Shown piece by piece: positions 9,057-56,523 of a DNA stretch of 64,000 nt. The notes under the pieces are model-generated. The model saw only the letters and a list, made by a program, of their open reading frames with translations, had not been told where the DNA came from and made no database searches. The stretch is from Escherichia phage mobillu. Positions within the stretch are counted from its first letter, which is position 1, and each line of letters begins with the position of its first letter. Made by a program: the position numbers and the translations under genes. The stretch lies in the sequence record MN850622.1. One strand, 5' to 3'.

Positions 9057-9086
9057 CGAAACGAAATGAGTAAATTGGAGAATAAA

Positions 9087-10067
9087 ATGTTCAACGTTCA
9101 AATCAAAAAAGGTATCTATCGTAATAACGAAATCTCTGGTTCTTATGTTGCCACAAAGACCTGGTTCCCGGCAAAGCTTAATCCTGAATGTTCCCACTTA
9201 GGTGATGGTAAAATTTTCGTTATGATTGATGGATCTGAACGTGGAGTATGGGTCTTCAAATCAGACATCGTAATGGAAGGAGTTGAGACGTCACCAGTTG
9301 CAGTTGTTGAAAGCACTGAAGATATGAAAACTCGTATCAACAAACGCTTTAAAGTAATGAACATGATGACGAATGGCATTATCGATGGCAAAATTCGTTC
9401 ACTCATTATTTCAGGTGCAGCTGGTATTGGTAAGACGTATTCTCTGGATAAAGCACTTAATAATGCTAATGATAATGGTTTCATCAAATACAAAAGCATT
9501 AATGGTAAAATCTCTGGTATTGACCTTTACGAACAACTTTGGCTCAACCGTGATGCAGACAGCGTTCTCTTAATCGATGACGTTGACGTATTCTCAGATA
9601 TGGACATCCTGAACCTTCTTAAAGCAGCATTAGATACCGGAGATAAACGCAAAGTTTGTTGGAGCACTGCGTCATCTTATCTCGAGGATAAGGGTATTGA
9701 TAAAGAATTTGAGTTTGAAGGTACTATCGTTTTCATTACAAACGTTGATATCGATAAAGAGTTAGAACGGGGTTCGAAACTTGCTCCACACCTTCAAGCT
9801 TTAGTATCTCGTTCAGTGTATCTCGACCTTGGAGTACACTCTAATGAAGAGATTATGGTTCGAGTTGAAGATGTAATATTATCTACTGACATGATGCAGA
9901 AACGTGGTCTGACGGATGCAGAAACGTATAAAGCATTGTCCTGGATGAAGGCTAACGTATCTCGTCTTCGCAATGTATCATTACGTACGGCTCTTTATGT
10001 AGCAGATTTTATTTCAACTGATAAAGATGGTTGGGAAGAAATCTCGGAAGTTACTTTACTGAAATAA
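9087..10067 (+). CDS. AAA-type P-loop ATPase-like protein
   Basis: Walker A ISGAAGIGKTY, Walker B VLLIDDVD; start placed at ATG 9087 after GGAG (ATG 9066 possible). Confidence 0.6.
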   Translation: MFNVQIKKGIYRNNEISGSYVATKTWFPAKLNPECSHLGDGKIFVMIDGSERGVWVFKSDIVMEGVETSPVAVVESTEDMKTRINKRFKVMNMMTNGIIDGKIRSLIISGAAGIGKTYSLDKALNNANDNGFIKYKSINGKISGIDLYEQLWLNRDADSVLLIDDVDVFSDMDILNLLKAALDTGDKRKVCWSTASSYLEDKGIDKEFEFEGTIVFITNVDIDKELERGSKLAPHLQALVSRSVYLDLGVHSNEEIMVRVEDVILSTDMMQKRGLTDAETYKALSWMKANVSRLRNVSLRTALYVADFISTDKDGWEEISEVTLLK

Positions 10068-10205
10068 GCTTATAGGAAGTTCTGAGGTAACAAAAGCCAT
10101 AAAGATGAATAATCATATGGCTTACCTCAAAGAAGGACACCAGGAACCTACTGAGGGCATAGAAATATTTAAAAATAATGATGTACAAATCAAAGAGGAT
10201 ATGTT

Positions 10206-10493
10206 ATGGATTTTATGCAAAAAATTAAAGCCGCAGTCGAACTCTATGCTCATCGTATGGTTAGTTCTACAATGCAATATAGCGAGGAGGTTCGCCAGGA
10301 CTCTTCCTTGAAAGGAAAAACTAAAGCCTTAATTACCTTAGATCGTTTGCAAAAGAATGCCATAGAGATGCTCCAGTACGACAAGGGTGTATATAAGAAA
10401 GAACAGGAAGAGAAACTTAAATCTGAAAAATTAAAGAAAATCCCGAAGTCGGTTTGGTTCAGTGGAAAAAATACCGAAAAAAGTTTCTTTTAG
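10206..10493 (+). CDS. hypothetical protein
   Basis: ORF 95 aa with RBS AGAGGA. Confidence 0.5.
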   Translation: MDFMQKIKAAVELYAHRMVSSTMQYSEEVRQDSSLKGKTKALITLDRLQKNAIEMLQYDKGVYKKEQEEKLKSEKLKKIPKSVWFSGKNTEKSFF

Positions 10494-10495
10494 TT

Positions 10496-10533
10496 GTTTA
10501 CAAGGTCTATGGTTATGTTATTATAGACCTATC
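10496..10533 (+). promoter_or_regulatory. T4-type early promoter (PeSL-like)
   Basis: GTTTAC 10496-10501, TG-TTATTATAGACC; inverted repeat GGTCTAT/ATAGACC. Confidence 0.5.
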
Positions 10534-10551
10534 AACTACTGGAGGTAAAAC

Positions 10552-11079
10552 ATGAACGCTAAAGATATTTTCAACCTGGTGAATTATAACGACGGTAAAT
10601 TTAAATCTGAAGCACAAAGCAAGTTCTTTAATGACGTTGCTTATGGTAACGAGATTACCGTGGACGGAGGTCAGATTTTCAAATCTCGCTGGAATTGGAT
10701 TGTTATCATCGATTCAGTTGGAATTGTGGAAGTCTACAAAAACACTAACAAAAAACGTACATTATTCTGGTCTCGTGAAACTAACGAGCAGTACAAAAAG
10801 GATAAAGCATCTCGTTTATCCAAAGTAACCCAGGAAGATATCGAGTTTATCAAGAAAGATATCGAGATGTACGAAAATTTAATTGCTGAAGACCAGGCAG
10901 TACTCGATAAGTTTGATGAAATTAAAGCTTCTCGTGAAATCCCTGACTTCATGAAAGAAACAGTAAACGAACGATACGCTCTCACTTCAGAACGTATTGC
11001 AAACTATACAAAACAGAAAGCAGAACGTATTAGTACTCTTCGGAAATTTGAAGAACGTTTAAAGACGGTTCACGCATAA
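10552..11079 (+). CDS. hypothetical protein
   Basis: ORF 175 aa with RBS GGAGG. Confidence 0.55.
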   Translation: MNAKDIFNLVNYNDGKFKSEAQSKFFNDVAYGNEITVDGGQIFKSRWNWIVIIDSVGIVEVYKNTNKKRTLFWSRETNEQYKKDKASRLSKVTQEDIEFIKKDIEMYENLIAEDQAVLDKFDEIKASREIPDFMKETVNERYALTSERIANYTKQKAERISTLRKFEERLKTVHA

Positions 11080-11081
11080 AC

Positions 11082-11106
11082 GCTTTACCCAAGGACGGGT
11101 TATAAT
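11082..11106 (+). promoter_or_regulatory. candidate middle-type promoter
   Basis: GCTTTA (MotA-box-like) 12 nt upstream of TATAAT 11101-11106; contains CCAAGGACGG motif. Confidence 0.35.
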
Positions 11107-11141
11107 GGTTTTGAGTTCCAATTCAATCTGAGGAAATAGTT

Positions 11142-12137
11142 ATGAGCATTACATCTGATGCGGTAAAACATGAAATTAACGGTTTATGTGCTTCACAGAT
11201 TAAAGTGTGGTTTAAAGACCATAACGATCGCAGAGCACTTAATTATGAACAAATTGCTATCCAAGTTCATCAATTACTGGTTAGTAAATTTGATTTTCAT
11301 ATGCCGTCTGAAATCTATACTAATCTGCCGCGAGCACTTATTAAAGCGTGTAAAGGTTATGGAAAATCAATGGCTGATGGAATCTTCAGCGCGCTGAATA
11401 AACTTAACGTTCTGTCGATGATTAACTCTAACAACATCCTGCGTAATCTAGGACGTACTGATTTGTTCGGCCGTGAACAGTGTAAAATGCCTTTGAAATG
11501 GATTGTTGCTCATCTTAACGAGAACCAAACACGTTTTATGGCCGTAACAGCACGCTTACAAATGGGCCTAGATCGTCAGATGAACTTTAAAACTCATCCA
11601 CGTTATTCAGGTTCAACTGACTTTTATAAATGTGAGCTTCAAAAGGTCGGTGGCAAAACCGTCTTAGTAGTTCGTGTAACGTTTGAAGGACGACGTCAAG
11701 GATATTTTGACATAATCGGCTCTGGACTTAAACATTGTGGATTTATCGACGAAGTTGATATCAAGCGAGACGGCGTTGGATACCGTATTGGGTATGTTTG
11801 TACTCTTAAAGAAGAGATTTCAGGACCAGCTCCAGGACTAAAAGACGTTAGATATAAAGACGAGCTCGTTGAAGAAATAAAAGAAGTTGAATATGATATC
11901 AACCAAGAAGATGCTCTTAAAGACCTTATTGATGAACTGAACCAAGACGTTATTCCGGTTCAGAAATTTGAATCAAAACATGCTGAGCAAATCAAATACT
12001 TTGAAGCTTTGATTAACGAACTTAATGTAACTATTCAACAGACTGACGATGAAATCTCACGATTAGCAGGCTTAAACGGTAAAAATAAAACAGAACGAGC
12101 TAATCTTATTCAAGTAGTAAAACTTCTTAAGGAATGA
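11142..12137 (+). CDS. hypothetical protein with C-terminal coiled coil
   Basis: ORF 331 aa; C-terminal heptad-rich segment. Confidence 0.6.
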   Translation: MSITSDAVKHEINGLCASQIKVWFKDHNDRRALNYEQIAIQVHQLLVSKFDFHMPSEIYTNLPRALIKACKGYGKSMADGIFSALNKLNVLSMINSNNILRNLGRTDLFGREQCKMPLKWIVAHLNENQTRFMAVTARLQMGLDRQMNFKTHPRYSGSTDFYKCELQKVGGKTVLVVRVTFEGRRQGYFDIIGSGLKHCGFIDEVDIKRDGVGYRIGYVCTLKEEISGPAPGLKDVRYKDELVEEIKEVEYDINQEDALKDLIDELNQDVIPVQKFESKHAEQIKYFEALINELNVTIQQTDDEISRLAGLNGKNKTERANLIQVVKLLKE

Positions 12138-12166
12138 TGTACAACCAAGGATGGTTGGAGTATAAT
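12137..12166 (+). promoter_or_regulatory. early promoter cassette
   Basis: ATGTAC-AACCAAGGATGGTTGGAG-TATAAT. Confidence 0.5.
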
Positions 12167-12192
12167 AAATTTTTCAACATGAGGAATATAAA

Positions 12193-13152
12193 ATGGCTTT
12201 TATTACACGTAGAGAACTTATCAAAGAATTTACCTCGAACGCATATACTCCAGGACCTAATCCTATCCGTATGCCTGTAAAGACTCCTGAAGAGATTGAG
12301 GAAATCTGTTCATATTATGGGATTACTTCTCGTAAGTTTACTCAATTTGAATGCGTTACTAACACACCCGTTAAAGAGTTCATTAAAAATGGCGAGTTCA
12401 GCCGTTTATTGGCCAAACAGAAACTTCGTAATTTTTGTATTGGCGGTGAAGGACAATATTTCGCTAAGCAGTTCCGGAATAACCTTAACAATCTGATGGC
12501 CATTGCTTCTCGTATTCGTCCTCAAGCAATTAACATGAAACATTTGAAATATACTTACGATAAGTTGGAAATCATGGTTATCAGTGAGAACGAGTTCACT
12601 CTCACGTATAAACCTAAGAATGATAACGTTGCTCGTGTATTCCACCAAGCGTTGGAAGTGTTAGGTGATAATATTCACCAGATTAAAGCAATTTATTCTC
12701 GTGAGCTTAATATTATCAACCCTATCAAGAATAAGGGCCATATCGCTATCCAGGCTCGTGTATCTATTGGTAAAAAGGTTCCTGCGCCATGGTGGCACAA
12801 AGACTCCGAATATTATCAAAATCTTAAAAAGGAAAATGCATTGTTTGAAGCATCGCTTACTGGGACCCCAATTGAACAGGCCGAAGTCCTAAGTGCTTAT
12901 TCTACTTCGGGTAAATCAATGTTTAAAGGTTTGCCAAATGTGTGCAAACTGTCTGCAGTAAAACTAAATGTTTCTAATGACCTTCTTCCGGTCGAAGATT
13001 ACCATTACAATCAAATCAAGGCCACTATGGACCAACTGTCTGTTGAACTTGACAAAGCACAAGCTAAGCTTCGTGATGCTCAAAGTGTTGTAACGAATCT
13101 CCAGTTGCAGTATTCTAAACTTTTTAACGCAATGAATGCGTTAAAATCATAA
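12193..13152 (+). CDS. hypothetical protein with C-terminal coiled coil
   Basis: ORF 319 aa; C-terminal heptad-rich segment. Confidence 0.6.
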   Translation: MAFITRRELIKEFTSNAYTPGPNPIRMPVKTPEEIEEICSYYGITSRKFTQFECVTNTPVKEFIKNGEFSRLLAKQKLRNFCIGGEGQYFAKQFRNNLNNLMAIASRIRPQAINMKHLKYTYDKLEIMVISENEFTLTYKPKNDNVARVFHQALEVLGDNIHQIKAIYSRELNIINPIKNKGHIAIQARVSIGKKVPAPWWHKDSEYYQNLKKENALFEASLTGTPIEQAEVLSAYSTSGKSMFKGLPNVCKLSAVKLNVSNDLLPVEDYHYNQIKATMDQLSVELDKAQAKLRDAQSVVTNLQLQYSKLFNAMNALKS

Positions 13153-13156
13153 ATCA

Positions 13157-13186
13157 GTTTACAACCAAGGATGGTTGGAGTATAAT
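13157..13186 (+). promoter_or_regulatory. early promoter cassette
   Basis: GTTTAC-AACCAAGGATGGTTGGAG-TATAAT, identical 30-mer also at 55021. Confidence 0.55.
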
Positions 13187-13214
13187 GAATTTATCTTAAC
13201 GAGAGGAAAATATT

Positions 13215-14165
13215 ATGACACGTTCACATTACATTGAATACTTTGCAGGTCTTATCGCTAACGTTCATGCCCAACGTGCTTCTGGTGTACTAGGATTTGA
13301 TGTTCCACACCGAGATGTAGTAAGTGGTATTCTTCGAGATTTTGGTACATACGTAGGCCAAGAAAATCATATCTGTAAAGATACTCAAAATGCATATTCT
13401 CATTCATTAGGGACACTGCTTCAATGGTTCAAACGTTCTCGTTTATTATCTTCTACTGTAGCTCGCGATAACATTAAAAACTTTATGAAGCCGAGCTTTA
13501 TTAAATCTGTGACATCTAAAACCGATTTGGTTGAATTCACTATTGTTAATGATGTTAAAAAGACTCATTTGGCTGATTGGTTAACTACCATTCCTGAAAC
13601 TAAATTTGCCGATAAATTTGCTTGTGAATTCAATAACCAAGTGAATATGCTTTTTAAACATTCTCGTAAATTATTCACAGGCGGCGATTCTCGTACAAAT
13701 ACAGTTCATGCTAAAGATTGGGTTACTGCAGTGTTCAAACCAACCGGTAATGGTACCGCATCATTATCAATTGATATTCAGGTTCCTTATTATCACTCAC
13801 GTAATCTCGGCACCATGAAAGCTGAAGAAATTAAGAAGCACAATAAAACCATTCGTTCGCTGTCTTATAAACTTCGCATGATGTTAAGAATCATGGACGT
13901 GGTAGAAATGTATGATGAAACCGAAGATAATGGTTCAATGTTATACAGTTCTCGCATTCAAATTAAGTTGAAGAACCCTAACGAGTATAAGCCTAAGCCT
14001 ATTAAAGAGCCTAAAGCAGAAAAAGTTGATAACTTAAGAGAAGAACGCGAATATCTCAAATCTCGTCTGAAAGAAGTCGAAGCCCAGATTGCAGAACAAA
14101 CTAAATCGTTAAAAGCTCTGAATGCGAAAGCGGATGGTTTACGAAATGCCATTGAGGTGTTATAA
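13215..14165 (+). CDS. hypothetical protein with C-terminal coiled coil
   Basis: ORF 316 aa; C-terminal heptad-rich segment. Confidence 0.6.
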   Translation: MTRSHYIEYFAGLIANVHAQRASGVLGFDVPHRDVVSGILRDFGTYVGQENHICKDTQNAYSHSLGTLLQWFKRSRLLSSTVARDNIKNFMKPSFIKSVTSKTDLVEFTIVNDVKKTHLADWLTTIPETKFADKFACEFNNQVNMLFKHSRKLFTGGDSRTNTVHAKDWVTAVFKPTGNGTASLSIDIQVPYYHSRNLGTMKAEEIKKHNKTIRSLSYKLRMMLRIMDVVEMYDETEDNGSMLYSSRIQIKLKNPNEYKPKPIKEPKAEKVDNLREEREYLKSRLKEVEAQIAEQTKSLKALNAKADGLRNAIEVL

Positions 14166-14470
14166 TGAAACTACGTCTTTTAGAGGATATTGATATGAGC
14201 ACTAATCATGGCTTGGTTAAGTTTATTGACGATAGTTCAAAGATTGAATTTGTTCAGCGAGATAAAATCCACGGTGAAGAAGAGTTTGTTCCTCCGGCAT
14301 GGAACGAAATAATGAAAATGGTTGAACGACGTGAAAATGCTGCCAAATCGGCAGCAAAACATCCATGCCCGGAATGTGGAACTATCCAAGTCCAACTGGT
14401 TAACTGGACAACTGATAACTTGAAATTGAAATGCCGTAAATGCTTCCACAAATTTGAGAGAACATTATAA
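14165..14470 (+). CDS. hypothetical zinc-ribbon protein
   Basis: C-terminal CPEC-x17-CRKC; TAATG coupling. Confidence 0.5.
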   Translation: MKLRLLEDIDMSTNHGLVKFIDDSSKIEFVQRDKIHGEEEFVPPAWNEIMKMVERRENAAKSAAKHPCPECGTIQVQLVNWTTDNLKLKCRKCFHKFERTL

Positions 14471-14883
14471 TGAGATATAGCCTTCATTGTTTTATCGCAG
14501 CTTTAGTTTTTGCCATCATTCCATTCATTTGGAACAGCCAGAATACTTACATGGAAACTAAAGTAATTCCTGTGGAGGTAGTGGAATTAATCTCAGGTCA
14601 ATCTACAGGAAAATATTCTAAATTAGAATTTATTGCCGTCTATAAAGATGAGCAAGGACGAGTTTTTGACAGGCGTGTATCGCCATCGTTTTATACGCTT
14701 CTGAATAAAGGTGATACGATAGCTATAGAAATTCGTGAGATGGATATCAAACAAACTACTAAAGATAACTTGATTTGGTTCTTTGGTATGGTGTTGTTGG
14801 TTTCTATCTGTATCACAGGTTTTATTACATGTATTGTATTTGGCGTTGCATATTTAATCGATGAAAGGAAAAATAATGTTTAA
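14470..14883 (+). CDS. hypothetical membrane protein
   Basis: N- and C-terminal hydrophobic helices. Confidence 0.55.
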   Translation: MRYSLHCFIAALVFAIIPFIWNSQNTYMETKVIPVEVVELISGQSTGKYSKLEFIAVYKDEQGRVFDRRVSPSFYTLLNKGDTIAIEIREMDIKQTTKDNLIWFFGMVLLVSICITGFITCIVFGVAYLIDERKNNV

Positions 14884-15139
14884 AGTGTACGGGTATGACT
14901 CTACTATTCATAAATGCATTTATTGTGATAATGCGAAACGATTGCTGACTGTTAAGAAACAGCCATTCGAATTCATTAATGTTATGCCAGAAAAAGGTGT
15001 TTTTGATGATGAGAAAATTGCTGAGCTTCTGGTTAAGCTTGGACGTGAATCACAAGTCGGATTGACTATGCCTCAAGTGTTTGCTCCTGACGGAAGTCAC
15101 ATTGGTGGATTTGATCAACTGCGAGAATATTTTAAATGA
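14876..15139 (+). CDS. nrdC: thioredoxin (NrdC)
   Basis: 87 aa from ATG 14876; MFKVYGYDSTIHKCIYCDNAKRLL...GGFDQLREYFK matches T4 NrdC as I recall it (CxYC active site). Confidence 0.9.
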   Translation: MFKVYGYDSTIHKCIYCDNAKRLLTVKKQPFEFINVMPEKGVFDDEKIAELLVKLGRESQVGLTMPQVFAPDGSHIGGFDQLREYFK

Positions 15140-16285: not shown

Positions 16286-16759
16286 ATGTTATTATCAGGC
16301 GCAAAATATAAAGAAGAAAAACAAAAATTTTATGATGCACAGAATGGTAAGTGTCCTATTTGCCACCGTGAATTAGACCCTGATGTTCAAGGTAACCATC
16401 TTGACCACGACCACGAATTAAACGGGCCAAAAGCCGGTAGAGTTCGTGGATTACTCTGTAATCTGTGCAACGCAGCAGAAGGCCAAATGAAGCATAAGTT
16501 CAATCGTTCCGGTCTTAAAGGACGTGATGTTGACTACCTCGAATGGCTTGAAGCTCTTCTTGCTTATTTGAAACAAGATTATTCTGATAATAATATCCAT
16601 CCTAATTTTGTTCCAGACAAAACTAAAGAGTTCTCAAGACTAGGTAAAGAGGAAATGATGGCTGAGATGCTTCAAAGAGGATTTGAATATAATGAATCTG
16701 ACACCAAAACACAGTTAATAGCTTCATTTAAGAAGCAGCTTAGAAAGAGTTTAAAATGA
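16286..16759 (+). CDS. 49: endonuclease VII (Holliday junction resolvase)
   Basis: 157 aa; YKEEKQKFYDAQNGKCPIC..HLDHDHELNGPKAG.VRGLLCNLCN...GFEYNESDTKTQLIASFKKQLRKSLK matches T4 gp49 as I recall it. Confidence 0.9.
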   Translation: MLLSGAKYKEEKQKFYDAQNGKCPICHRELDPDVQGNHLDHDHELNGPKAGRVRGLLCNLCNAAEGQMKHKFNRSGLKGRDVDYLEWLEALLAYLKQDYSDNNIHPNFVPDKTKEFSRLGKEEMMAEMLQRGFEYNESDTKTQLIASFKKQLRKSLK

Positions 16760-25292: not shown

Positions 25293-25518
25293 TTATGAAA
25301 TCCATCGTCATGAATTTAGTATTGGTGACGGTTATATTGGTATCGTTGAATGGACTGAGAATTACGAGGAATCAACTCCTCGTTTCTTTGGAACAATGTA
25401 TGTTACCTGTGAGTACGCACCAGGTGTTGTTATGTATGCAGAACTAGATGAATATTTTGCTGATAGAGATGGCATGTTAAAATATGTAGAGGACTTCATT
25501 CGAAGAGAATACATATGA
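25279..25518 (+). CDS. hypothetical protein
   Basis: ORF 25264..25518 begins with TTG in the track; ATG 25279 (or 25270) preferred. Confidence 0.45.
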   Translation: MTKTDYEIHRHEFSIGDGYIGIVEWTENYEESTPRFFGTMYVTCEYAPGVVMYAELDEYFADRDGMLKYVEDFIRREYI

Positions 25519-27203
25519 AATCATTTAAATTAAATCGTGTTCGTTATCAAAACATCATGTCTGTAGGTGGGAATCCTATTGATATCCAATTAGATAAAGT
25601 CCAAAAGACCTTAATCACCGGTAAAAATGGCGGTGGTAAATCTACGATGTTAGAAGCCATTACTTTCGGACTTTTCGGTAAACCATTTCGTGATGTTAAG
25701 AAAGGACAAATCATTAATAGCACGAACAAGAAAGAGCTCTTAGTTGAGCTTTGGATGGAATTCGATGATAAAAAATACTTCATTAAACGTGGCCAAAAGC
25801 CCAATATTTTCGAAATCTCCGTTGACGGTGTTCGTCTCGATGAATCTGCCAGCAGTCGTGACTTCCAAGAAGAATTTGAACGTAGCATCGGAATGTCATA
25901 CGCGTCTTTTAAACAGATCGTTGTGCTTGGGACGGCAGGGTATACCCCTTTCATGGCTCTTAGCACCCCTGCTCGTAGAAAACTTGTCGAAGACCTTTTA
26001 GAAGTCGGCACACTCGCTGAAATGGATAAAATCAATAAGTCTCAAGTTCGAGAACTTAATTCCCAGGGACAAGTTCTCGATGCCAAGAAAGATGGTATTA
26101 TCCAACAAATTAAGATTTATAACGAGAATATCGAACGTCAAAAGAAATTATCTGGTGATAATGTAGCGCGTCTACAGAATATGTATGACGACCTAGCCAA
26201 AGAAGCTCGTTCATTAAAAGCAGAAATCGAAGAAGCTAATGAGCGACTACTTAATATCGTTCTTGATGAAGACCCTACTGAGGCATTCAACAAGATAGGA
26301 CAAGAAGCATTCTTGATTAAATCTAAAATCGACTCATATAACAAAGTTATTAAGATGTATCATGATGGCGGTACATGTCCTACTTGTGCATCACAGTTGC
26401 ACCAGGGTGATCCTATTGTCTCTAAGATTACCGATAAGCTTCATGAATGTAATCACTCATTCGAGCAACTTACATGTCACAGAGATAATCTGAGTGTCCT
26501 AGTGGACGAATATAGAGCTAATGTTAAGACTAAACAGGACCTTGCATCTGATATTCGTACCAAGAAACAAGCAATGATTGCCACTATTGATAAAGCTAAG
26601 AAAGTTAAAGCTGCAATAGAGCAAGCCTCAGCAGAATTTATCGACCATGCCGATGAGATAGCTTTGCTTCAAAAAGAACTTGATAAAATCATTAAAACAA
26701 AATCAGATATCGTTCTTGAAAAATACCATCGTGGTATTATCACAGATATGTTAAAAGATTCTGGTATTAAAGGTGCTATCATTAAAAAATATGTGCCTCT
26801 GTTCAACAAGCAGATTAACCATTATCTTAAAATCATGGAAGCTGATTACGTGTTTTCTATTGACGAAGAATTCAATGAATCTATAAAATCACGTGGTCGT
26901 GAAGATTTTAGTTATGCTTCATTTAGTCAAGGTGAAAAGGCACGTATCGATATCGCATTGTTGTTTACATGGCGAGATATTGCTGAAAAGGTCTCTGGTG
27001 TTAAAATCAACACTCTGATTCTTGATGAGGTTTTTGATGGTGCTGTTGATTCTGAGGCTGTTAAGGCTATAGATACCATTCTTGGAAGTTTACAAAATAC
27101 TAATGTGTTCATTATCTCTCATCGAGACCATGACCCTCAACGTTATGGACAACATCTTCAAATGAGCAAAGTTGGACGATTTACGGTAATGACTGTTTCA
27201 TAA
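25515..27203 (+). CDS. 46: recombination nuclease subunit gp46 (Rad50/SbcC-like ATPase)
   Basis: 562 aa; Walker A GKNGGGKST, central coiled coil with CPTC zinc hook, signature FSQGEKARI, Walker B LILDEVFD. Confidence 0.9.
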   Translation: MKSFKLNRVRYQNIMSVGGNPIDIQLDKVQKTLITGKNGGGKSTMLEAITFGLFGKPFRDVKKGQIINSTNKKELLVELWMEFDDKKYFIKRGQKPNIFEISVDGVRLDESASSRDFQEEFERSIGMSYASFKQIVVLGTAGYTPFMALSTPARRKLVEDLLEVGTLAEMDKINKSQVRELNSQGQVLDAKKDGIIQQIKIYNENIERQKKLSGDNVARLQNMYDDLAKEARSLKAEIEEANERLLNIVLDEDPTEAFNKIGQEAFLIKSKIDSYNKVIKMYHDGGTCPTCASQLHQGDPIVSKITDKLHECNHSFEQLTCHRDNLSVLVDEYRANVKTKQDLASDIRTKKQAMIATIDKAKKVKAAIEQASAEFIDHADEIALLQKELDKIIKTKSDIVLEKYHRGIITDMLKDSGIKGAIIKKYVPLFNKQINHYLKIMEADYVFSIDEEFNESIKSRGREDFSYASFSQGEKARIDIALLFTWRDIAEKVSGVKINTLILDEVFDGAVDSEAVKAIDTILGSLQNTNVFIISHRDHDPQRYGQHLQMSKVGRFTVMTVS

Positions 27204-55020: not shown

Positions 55021-55050
55021 GTTTACAACCAAGGATGGTTGGAGTATAAT
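55021..55050 (+). promoter_or_regulatory. early promoter cassette
   Basis: GTTTAC-AACCAAGGATGGTTGGAG-TATAAT, identical to 13157-13186. Confidence 0.55.
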
Positions 55051-55081: not shown

Positions 55082-55576
55082 ATGAATATCAATACTACGG
55101 CTACTTACATCCTGAAAGACGAAAAACAAATCAACTGGTACGGTGCTTCAGTGCGAGCTTATGAAAAGTTTTGTGAAATTTTAGGTGCCACTCAAGGTAA
55201 TAGTTTCACTATTGTTAACTTCATCAAACAAGCTGAAGGCCCTTGGTTATTCTTAGAAATTAAAAATTCATACGGTACAATTTCTACTGCCGCCCTTCCA
55301 AGCACCGACTTTGAACTGTTGATTGAAGAAGTAGAACCTGTTAAAGACATCTGTATTGATATGGATATCGCTTGTATGTACGGTACTCTGATTAAGCCTA
55401 TTGAGCCTACTGATTTGTTGTGTAAATATGTTTCAATTCGACGACCGTTCGCTGGTCCAGTAAATGGCTGGGTGTCTGACCAGTGGATTGAAGAAGGTGT
55501 TGAACTTCTGAACGTTGTTCATGCAGGTGATTTTAGTGTAGTTCCACGTAGTGCTGTGGTTAATATCCTTAATTAA
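55082..55576 (+). CDS. hypothetical protein, paralog family member A
   Basis: 164 aa; C-terminal GWVSDQWIEEGVELLNVVHAGDFSVV shared with next two ORFs. Confidence 0.6.
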   Translation: MNINTTATYILKDEKQINWYGASVRAYEKFCEILGATQGNSFTIVNFIKQAEGPWLFLEIKNSYGTISTAALPSTDFELLIEEVEPVKDICIDMDIACMYGTLIKPIEPTDLLCKYVSIRRPFAGPVNGWVSDQWIEEGVELLNVVHAGDFSVVPRSAVVNILN

Positions 55577-55578
55577 TG

Positions 55579-55608
55579 TTGTACATCCAAGGATGGATGG
55601 AGTATAGT
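55579..55608 (+). promoter_or_regulatory. early promoter cassette variant
   Basis: TTGTAC-ATCCAAGGATGGATGGAG-TATAGT. Confidence 0.5.
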
Positions 55609-55638
55609 GAATTCAATTTAAACAAAGAGAGAGAAATT

Positions 55639-56094
55639 ATGATTGCTATTGGTGAAATTAAGCGTGTATCGTCTGCATCTCGTTCTAAAGCTGCAGGTCG
55701 TCTAGTTGAAGTGGTAGGACTTCGTACTAATGGTACTGGTCGTGTTAAAGAAGTTAAAGTTCGAATCATTCCTAGTTCTGGAAAAACTGAAACTCAGTAC
55801 GCTTACGTAAGTCCTAAATTTTTGGAAACTCATGTGAGCGCTCATTTTGCTTCTACTGAACCTAATGCACAGTTCAAATGGGCCCTTTGCAAAGGTGTTG
55901 AATTCCAGACTGATAAAGAATTTGACTTCATCGATGAATATGGTTATCCAAGCAAAACTGATACTATGTGTGGCTTCATTAGTGACCAATGGGTTGAAGA
56001 TGGTGAAAAGTTATACAATATCGTATTCTTAGGTGACTTCCGAGTTGTTAAAGAATCTGAAATCACTCGCTATGTGTCTCCTCGTAAAGCTTAA
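55639..56094 (+). CDS. hypothetical protein, paralog family member B
   Basis: ORF 55576..56094 begins inside the promoter; start placed at ATG 55639 after GAGAGAG; shares N- and C-terminal motifs with 56104 ORF. Confidence 0.6.
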   Translation: MIAIGEIKRVSSASRSKAAGRLVEVVGLRTNGTGRVKEVKVRIIPSSGKTETQYAYVSPKFLETHVSAHFASTEPNAQFKWALCKGVEFQTDKEFDFIDEYGYPSKTDTMCGFISDQWVEDGEKLYNIVFLGDFRVVKESEITRYVSPRKA

Positions 56095-56103
56095 GGAATT
56101 ATT

Positions 56104-56523
56104 ATGAATATTGTAAATCTCTCTACAGGTGATTACGTATATGTATCCGTTGCTTCTCGCTCTAAAGTTGCCGGGAAGTTGGTTGAAGTTCTTTCTGTGA
56201 GTGATCCGGTTTTTGGACGTAACGAAGTTAAAGTTCGTGACGCTGATGGTAACATTGGTTATGTCTCAAGCCAATTCATTGAACCAGAAGAAAAAGCGTT
56301 CAAATGGGGACTATGCAGATCAGTTTCTGTTGAAAAAGACCATGAATTCACTATTGCTGCGGCAACTGATGGAACACCGTGGAAAACTAAGCAAATCGCC
56401 GGATTTATTAGCGACCGTTGGGTAGAAGATGGTGTTAAGCTTTATAACATCGTTTTCGCTGGACAGTTCATGGTAGTTCCTGAATTCCAAATTAAAAAAT
56501 ATAGCCCAGCTGCTTTTGCATAA
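56104..56523 (+). CDS. hypothetical protein, paralog family member C
   Basis: 139 aa; SRSK.AG.LVEV and GFISD.WVEDG..LYNIVF.G.F.VV shared with member B. Confidence 0.6.
   Translation: MNIVNLSTGDYVYVSVASRSKVAGKLVEVLSVSDPVFGRNEVKVRDADGNIGYVSSQFIEPEEKAFKWGLCRSVSVEKDHEFTIAAATDGTPWKTKQIAGFISDRWVEDGVKLYNIVFAGQFMVVPEFQIKKYSPAAFA

Follow-up and report, generated by a model that had tools for sequence, protein, structure and literature searches.

Why should a phage carry, side by side, three genes of nearly the same length whose products show no significant pairwise similarity to one another and all end in a similar heptad-patterned segment? The question is raised by a stretch of 64 kilobases (kb) of the Escherichia phage mobillu (sequence record MN850622.1), which was analyzed as a whole and is called the window throughout. 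A preliminary description of this DNA proposed that three consecutive open reading frames (ORFs), labeled A, B and C in the current work, encode unrelated N-terminal domains followed by similar C-terminal coiled coils, and that they form a diversified effector family in the hyperplastic nrdC-rI region. The three ORFs were indeed found in the ORF list at near-equal lengths, all on the + strand, and each ATG is preceded at a distance of 7 nucleotides (nt) by the predicted GAGGA-type ribosome-binding site (11130-11134 for A, 12181-12185 for B and 13203-13207 for C). The genes are as follows.

11142-12137, + strand: gene A, 331 amino acids (aa), a diverged homologue of T4 NrdC.6 (PF26899 Phage_T4_Y05B, PHROG 2257)
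12193-13152, + strand: gene B, 319 aa, assigned to Pfam DUF7235 (PF23882) and distantly homologous to T4 NrdC.5
13215-14165, + strand: gene C, 316 aa, the counterpart of T4 NrdC.3 and a paralogue of NrdC.4 (PHROG 1435)

We report here that, as judged from profile comparisons, A and B are almost certainly paralogues, and that C very probably belongs to the same superfamily. By the same comparisons, the homology begins near residue 60-80, continues through to the C-terminus and is thus not confined to the tails. What such a family might do for the phage, and how its members come and go, is considered thereafter.

Homology between A, B and C

Pairwise comparison gives no sign of a relationship. 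BLASTP returned nothing significant for any pair among A, B and C, the three families are listed separately by both Pfam and PHROGs, and early hhalign runs with small family alignments joined A to the others at only P=0.02-0.06. A search with a joint alignment of B, C and D (D being NrdC.4-type) returned NrdC.4-type and B-type proteins only, with no NrdC.3-type or T4 NrdC.5-type clusters, and the multiple alignment for B was shallow for this reason. NrdC.3 and NrdC.4 matched each other at 97.7% in hhalign.

The link between the families surfaced only once a full-library hidden Markov model (HMM) search had supplied the intermediates. Run with the A/NrdC.6 profile against 1.84 billion representative proteins, this search found a family of distant relatives, termed X (P0181, P0182, P0184 and P0186), at E=3e-8 to 1e-4. 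In metagenomic T4-like contigs, X is a single-copy gene at the same genomic position; it is also present in Kanagawavirus (IME523, PEi20) and Mosugukvirus (PM2), immediately upstream of nrdC.2. In hhalign, the X profile matched both A (98.9%, E=2e-17) and B (97.4%, E=1e-11), residues 102-345 of X being aligned to residues 61-319 of B. Gene C was connected through an enriched NrdC.3+NrdC.4 profile, which reached 96.5-97% against the pooled A+B+X profile (E about 1e-9 to 1e-10) and 94% against X alone, the latter over 214 columns that include the C-terminus. The alignments are colinear: residues 82-331 of A pair with residues 60-319 of B, and residues 60-244 of C with residues 72-213 of A. Three controls stayed negative in hhalign, namely a reversed alignment (P=0.09-0.35), the unrelated neighboring family Y (P=0.05-0.5), and NrdC.8, whose own tail is likewise helical and heptad-like (P=0.04-0.4). 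Profile-to-sequence searches point in the same direction for A and B. Thus, in a database of 639 ORFs, the HMMER profile of X retrieved every A-family ORF (19/19) and every B-family ORF (18/18) at E<=1e-8 and NrdC.4 at E=6e-5, the best unrelated ORF scoring E=0.75. Furthermore, the IME523 X protein clears the DUF7235 threshold by its tail, and P0181 shows weak matches to both DUF7235 and PF26899.

The silence of BLASTP, the separate PHROGs and Pfam families, and the fact that the tail is the best-conserved part would also fit a scenario in which domain shuffling attached a common coiled-coil module to three unrelated N-terminal effector domains. We regard this as highly unlikely, since the alignments X-B, A-B and C-A are colinear far upstream of the tail, since an ...ARLxxGxxR... 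motif is found within the supposed N-domain of all families, and since the models of A and B have the same order of elements (see below). The N-terminal parts are therefore not unrelated, as had been proposed, but diverged beyond the reach of BLASTP, and the implied joining of foreign domains to a shared coiled coil gives way to profile homology upstream of the tail, which argues that the module arose by divergence. The profiles suggest that NrdC.3, NrdC.4, NrdC.5 and NrdC.6 belong to a single superfamily of T4-like phages (Straboviridae), expanded in tandem and marked by a conserved C-terminal motif; this unification appears to be new with respect to the libraries queried.

Two other proteins were considered as family members and were rejected: Y, a 256-aa upstream protein of Kanagawavirus-type phages for which hhalign was flat, and NrdC.8, whose heptad-like tail was outweighed by the hhalign values given above.

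The conserved tail

The segments to which the preliminary description had drawn attention are the following.

11973-12134, + strand: tail of A, aa 278-331, a predicted helical hairpin that ends ...TERANLIQVVKLLKE
12988-13149, + strand: tail of B, aa 266-319, a predicted single long helix that ends ...LQYSKLFNAMNALKS
14004-14162, + strand: tail of C, aa 264-316, heptad-patterned, which ends ...AKADGLRNAIEVL

As a measure of coiled-coil character, a crude ad hoc a/d-heptad score was calculated for the + strand ORFs of >=100 aa (n=72). C, B and A ranked second, third and fourth, behind the ORF at 25515-27203, and the signal in all three was restricted to the last 45-55 residues. When the last 60 residues were shuffled, the observed score was reached in 7, 0 and 4 of 2000 trials for the three tails; the pattern thus exceeds what composition provides. 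In the AlphaFold2 models, the tail helices have predicted local distance difference test (pLDDT) values of about 80-88 in A (281-307 and 313-330) and 60-82 in B (266-318), and the tail of A carries a conserved glycine break and is modeled as a hairpin. The expectation of a heptad-rich C-terminal segment in each protein is therefore well founded. Its description as rich in Lys, Glu and Gln applies to A (32% in the tail vs 18% in the rest) and C (37% vs 15%) but not to B (22% vs 21%).

The similarity extends to individual positions. The extreme C-termini share the motif [QE][RY]x[KG]Lxxx[AV]xxxL[KR], as exemplified by the endings of B (LQYSKLFNAMNALKS), PM2 (EQYDKLFAALSALK) and P0181 (AQRDKLMKALKVLKS). 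In every family, conservation is highest in the tail; that of A is 96%, 60% and 53% identical to other alleles, for which the whole protein is 69%, 32% and 28% identical. A tail so conserved beside faster-diverging N-terminal and central parts indicates that the module is real. One could still argue that the tails resemble one another merely as generic coiled-coil-like sequence, a compositional artifact, and that the equal lengths are coincidental, and the weak Pfam cross-matches to the unrelated coiled-coil families Mer2, CENP-F and APC_N_CC are of the kind that such an artifact would produce. We find this explanation the least credible of those considered, given that tail-only shuffles seldom reach the heptad score, that a position-specific C-terminal motif is common to the families, and that neither NrdC.8 with its heptad-like tail nor reversed sequences gave any hhalign signal. 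To this extent, the data support the earlier picture of a family that has diversified within a hyperplastic region and has a C-terminal module in common.

Structure models and common layout

The model of A (AlphaFold2) has a mean pLDDT of 71. It predicts seven helices with confidence in residues 3-141, a beta-beta-alpha-beta-beta unit in residues 162-221, an acidic linker of low confidence in residues 225-277, and the C-terminal helical hairpin formed by 281-307 and 313-330. The model of B shows the same order of elements and ends in one long helix (266-318), but is poor (pLDDT 50; 49.8). With the A model, Foldseek found two X proteins, those of IME523 and PM2 (E=1e-7), as well as 300-335-aa proteins of T4-like phages of Acinetobacter, Klebsiella, Serratia and Aeromonas (E=1e-6 to 1e-3). 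With the B model it found RB69 NrdC.5 only; because the model is poor, this search is uninformative and does not speak against a shared fold. Searches of the PDB with sequence profiles gave no match, and no known fold was found for the family by them; a search of NCBIfam likewise had no match.

The best-conserved internal motif of A and X is a helix, ...NQRRLLALGARLAxGxDKQMxFK..., which is recognizable as ...NNLMAIASRIRPQAINMKHLK... in B and as ...NMLFKHSRKLFTGGDSRTNTV... in C. A common layout is indicated, in which an N-terminal helical region is followed, in all copies, by the conserved basic helix (A-R-L-x-x-G-D/N-x-R) and a small alpha/beta unit. A linker that varies and is probably disordered then leads to the conserved C-terminal amphipathic helix or hairpin. 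The isoelectric point (pI) lies at 9.1-9.5 for B, C, NrdC.3, NrdC.5 and NrdC.6, and the conserved core is positively charged. A role as acidic DNA mimic was also considered and was rejected for B and C (pI about 9.4), the acidic stretch being only the linker of A.

Family assignments

The assignments rest on the following matches. A matches PHROG 2257 at E=2e-127 and is, in BLASTP, 32% identical to full-length 295-aa NrdC.6 alleles (E=1e-32, 345 aligned positions); its PF26899 membership comes via the pre-annotated cluster P0001, which is 99% identical to A. The linker of A holds an acidic insertion of ~40 aa that is not in NrdC.6-type alleles. B matches the DUF7235 model over residues 15-318 (profile 1-307/307) with 415.8 bits and E=1.6e-124, membership being defined as a full-length match above the gathering score of 30 bits. 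T4 NrdC.5 scores almost the same against that model (420.6 bits, E=5e-126). B and T4 NrdC.5 are only 25% identical to each other over 304 aa (E=1e-10, BLASTP), and the NrdC.5-type protein of a Dhakavirus (phage VR5) matches DUF7235 too. C is 55% identical to T4 NrdC.3 over 316 aa (E=1e-119) and matches PHROG 1435 at E=1e-104, and NrdC.4-type proteins match C over its full length at E=1e-8 (BLASTP). The three families are restricted to T-even-type enterobacterial phages, and their alleles fall into sharply separated classes, which in the case of C lie at 99% and at roughly 92%, 75% and 55% identity.

Two matters of annotation touch these families. First, in the GenBank record of T4 (AF158101), nrdC.6 (9997-10894, minus strand) is an ORF of 275 aa that stops early owing to a 1-nt frameshift; the next frame still encodes the complete conserved tail, ISIQQYDDEIFRLSGLSSKAKSEREKLIKIVDLLKS, and NrdC.6 has 295-296 aa in other T-evens and in the T4 annotation of the HIDEN-SEQ study. 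Second, many GenBank records call the whole nrdC.1-nrdC.11 block, A, B and C included, 'thioredoxin'. No thioredoxin domain was found in A, B or C, and the labels are an annotation artifact, carried over from the gene names.

A probable role against host defenses

A clue to function comes from T4, whose NrdC.5 is reported to counteract Dsr1, a defense-associated sirtuin of E. coli ECOR17, and to allow a T4 deletion mutant to plate again on cells that carry it (Srikant et al. 2022, PMC9391042). B agrees with T4 NrdC.5 in its full-length DUF7235 match, block position, length class, tail motif and early promoter, and differs in that the two are only about 25% identical. The effector role proposed in the preliminary description thus gains indirect support through B, and the membership of NrdC.5 in its family makes A, B and C good anti-defense candidates. 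Several neighbors of the array have reported activities of the same kind. T4 nrdC.1 is reported to inhibit Septu, and bas37_0203 (Bas37, 528 nt) to inhibit Druantia III (preprint 10.1101/2025.11.20.689424); the latter is at the position of NrdC.8 and hence corresponds to window 10552-11079. T6 gp49.2 inhibits OLD (PMC13096335).

Taking these data together, we think that A, B and C probably represent a tandemly expanded, fast-diverging family of early anti-defense proteins with a conserved, putatively oligomerizing tail. Circumstantial support is given by the early promoters that B and C have of their own, by the dispensability of nrdC.3-nrdC.6 in laboratory hosts, by a divergence faster than that of the neighboring genes, and by variation in presence and absence. 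In the proposed mechanism, the proteins would be made immediately after infection and each paralogue would neutralize a different host defense, as T4 NrdC.5 does Dsr1. Most likely, the fast-diverging N-terminal and central parts would bind host immune proteins directly and stoichiometrically, and the conserved tail would serve for homo- or hetero-oligomerization or for docking to a common partner. Alternatively, since the proteins are basic, they might bind nucleic acid and so mask a trigger.

Several points weigh against the anti-defense interpretation or against the superfamily on which it builds. NrdC.5 is the sole family member with an anti-defense phenotype (PMC9391042), and B, being only 25% identical to it, need not have Dsr1 as its target. 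The basic character of most members (pI 9.1-9.5) fits nucleic-acid binding equally well as protein inhibition. C is joined to A and B through profiles only, the HMMER profile-to-sequence comparison being not significant for C, and, the B model being of low confidence, the shared fold is putative.

These points bear on a different explanation, namely that the paralogues are early accessory proteins with no part in anti-defense, acting as basic nucleic-acid-binding, host-takeover or host-physiology adaptation factors. The high pI of B, C, NrdC.3, NrdC.5 and NrdC.6, the positive core and the single phenotype all suit such a role. In addition, the HIDEN-SEQ entries for nrdC.3-nrdC.6, in the part of that source consulted, carry no significant conditional phenotype. 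Against this stand the published anti-Dsr1 phenotype of a DUF7235 member, the presence of at least three other published anti-defense genes in the block, and extreme allelic divergence with presence and absence among near-identical phages, which is typical of arms-race genes. We therefore consider the accessory role possible but rather unlikely. Literature searches turned up no subsequent study of how NrdC.5 works.

Going one step further than an anti-defense role for A, B and C, one may speculate that NrdC.3-NrdC.6 and their relatives form one superfamily of modular inhibitors, each with a fast-evolving recognition region directed at a different bacterial immune protein, one paralogue per defense and the tail as a handle for oligomerization or for docking to a shared host or phage partner, the whole being a cassette-shuffled library; we put this forward as a tentative model. 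The array resembles the T4 'anti-TA island' (dmd, tifA, adfA) and anti-CRISPR loci in that small to medium-sized, non-essential early genes are clustered and vary strongly among close relatives, and it shares with clustered anti-defense loci the presence of several neighbors with published anti-defense activity. It differs from them in that its members are mutual paralogues and, at about 320 aa, large for inhibitors. As to T4 itself, A is 32% identical to NrdC.6 over the full length and C 55% identical to NrdC.3; the NrdC.4 family is PF26897.

Promoter cassettes and turnover of the array

The preliminary description placed a promoter cassette before each of the three ORFs. An exact 26-nt repeat, ACAACCAAGGATGGTTGGAGTATAAT, occurs three times in the 64 kb (12141-12166, 13161-13186 and 55025-55050) and never in shuffled sequence. 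The cassettes near the array are these.

12138-12166, + strand: early-promoter cassette 5' of B, TGTACA, 17 nt, TATAAT; holds the exact 26-nt repeat
13157-13186, + strand: early-promoter cassette 5' of C, GTTTAC, 18 nt, TATAAT; holds the same 26-nt repeat
11084-11106, + strand: shortened, degenerate cassette 5' of A, TTTACC, 11 nt, TATAAT

Together with its -35 hexamer, the cassette fits the T4/PST-type early promoter consensus TTTACW-N17-TAYWAT (PMC4122927). The earlier claim holds for B and C, each with the exact 26-nt repeat, and fails for A, which has the shortened copy only; this copy is no canonical promoter because its 11-nt spacing is wrong for sigma-70, and it was not called by the promoter scan. 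A may either have a promoter of its own or be transcribed by read-through from the nrdC.8 promoter at 10497-10524.

Copy number varies among relatives, from a single gene beside nrdC.2 in more distant T4-like phages to between two and four in the T-even coliphages. One copy of the gene is present in Kanagawavirus, Mosugukvirus and metagenomic relatives, two in ESCO47, three in Dhakavirus and in the window, and four in T4. ESCO47, which has no B, is instructive in that its spacer between A and C is a hybrid: the 5' half matches the window spacer 5' of B, the 3' half matches the spacer 5' of C, and the junction falls inside the common promoter cassette. Recombination between the repeated promoter cassettes would thus explain the presence or absence of B among close relatives, and this cassette-mediated gain or loss appears to be new with respect to the libraries queried. 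Other relatives carry scars of a similar kind. In ACG-C40, 71 codons of nrdC.5 and a 3' remnant of nrdC.3 are left, and in Pinarejo only a 3' remnant of nrdC.6.

Gain/loss scars in the relatives ESCO47, ACG-C40 and Pinarejo: L015 5950-6045; L017 4730-5140; L016 4936-5149

In T4-type phages, gene modules are known to be shuffled by way of promoter-early stem-loops (PeSLs) (Arbiol et al. 2010, PMC2839356; Comeau et al. 2014, PMC4122927). The window is like the PeSL system in that an early-promoter cassette is repeated in a hyperplastic region and flanks variable ORFs, with a hybrid spacer in a relative that is without B. It is unlike it in two ways. First, a terminator-type stem-loop, which belongs to the definition of a PeSL, was not found by the window promoters; the terminator scan found no terminator-like site on the + strand in the three spacers, and the sole palindrome in a promoter spacer is one of 5 bp, AACCA/TGGTT. 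Second, the exact cassette is found, among A, B and C, at B and C only.

Further sites of this type were seen in the window. A perfect promoter-like GTTTAC-N18-TATAAT lies at 14137-14166, within the last codons of C and directly before the nrdC.2-like gene. The third exact copy of the cassette, 30 nt long, is at 55021-55050, and a copy with 3 mismatches is at 55583-55608. The ORFs 55082-55576, 55576-56094 and 56104-56523 follow the cassette at 55 kb and have the common C-terminal motif SDQW[IV]E[ED]G..L.N[IV]V..G.F.VV; located downstream of dda- and dexA-like genes, these three ORFs (55082-56523) look like another tandem set of paralogues.

Genomic setting

The DNA of the window is 97-99% identical to that of many T-even coliphages, including vB_Eco_mar005P1, KAW3E185 and AlbertHofmann/Bas47 (Mosigvirus; 98.5% identical here). 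Its orientation is the reverse of the T4 map, and A and C keep the order that their T4 counterparts have with respect to nrdC.8 and nrdC.2. The genes around the array are listed below.

9066-10067: NrdC.10 counterpart, 77% identical to T4
10552-11079, + strand: NrdC.8 counterpart, 83% identical to T4 NrdC.8, outside the A/B/C family
14165-14470: NrdC.2 counterpart, 51% identical to T4
14470-14883: gene for an NrdC.7-like membrane protein, 42% identical to T4 NrdC.7
14861-15139: NrdC, 92% identical to T4
16286-16759: endonuclease VII, 89% identical to T4, after which NrdD follows

Identity to the T4 counterpart is 29% for A, 25% for B and 55% for C, as opposed to 89-99% for gp49, NrdC and NrdD; the flanking genes overall stand at 77-99%, compared with the 25-55% of the array. 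Counterparts of nrdC.4 and of nrdC.1 (in T4 the reported anti-Septu gene) are absent from the window. The NrdC.7-like gene lies between the nrdC.2-like gene and nrdC in the window, and T4 nrdC.7 is on the other side of the array. The NrdC.10 counterpart (9066-10067) shows weak matches to P-loop nucleoside triphosphatases (NTPases) of the AAA/STAND type (AAA_22, nSTAND3) and to HTH_37; this uncharacterized putative NTPase is kept across T4-like phages and adjoins the variable array.

Implications

The T-evens are the main model of phage-host arms races, and most genes of the nrdC block are without an assigned function. A, B and C themselves were already known, annotated as hypothetical, and one of the families had a published phenotype; the present result is thus a testable refinement of what was known. 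The hybrid cassette of ESCO47 provides a clear example of how arrays of this kind acquire and lose members. If four families of 'hypothetical protein' do form one superfamily that includes an anti-Dsr1 member, their paralogues and alleles could be screened against panels of defense systems, and the conserved tail would offer a target for mutation or a bait.

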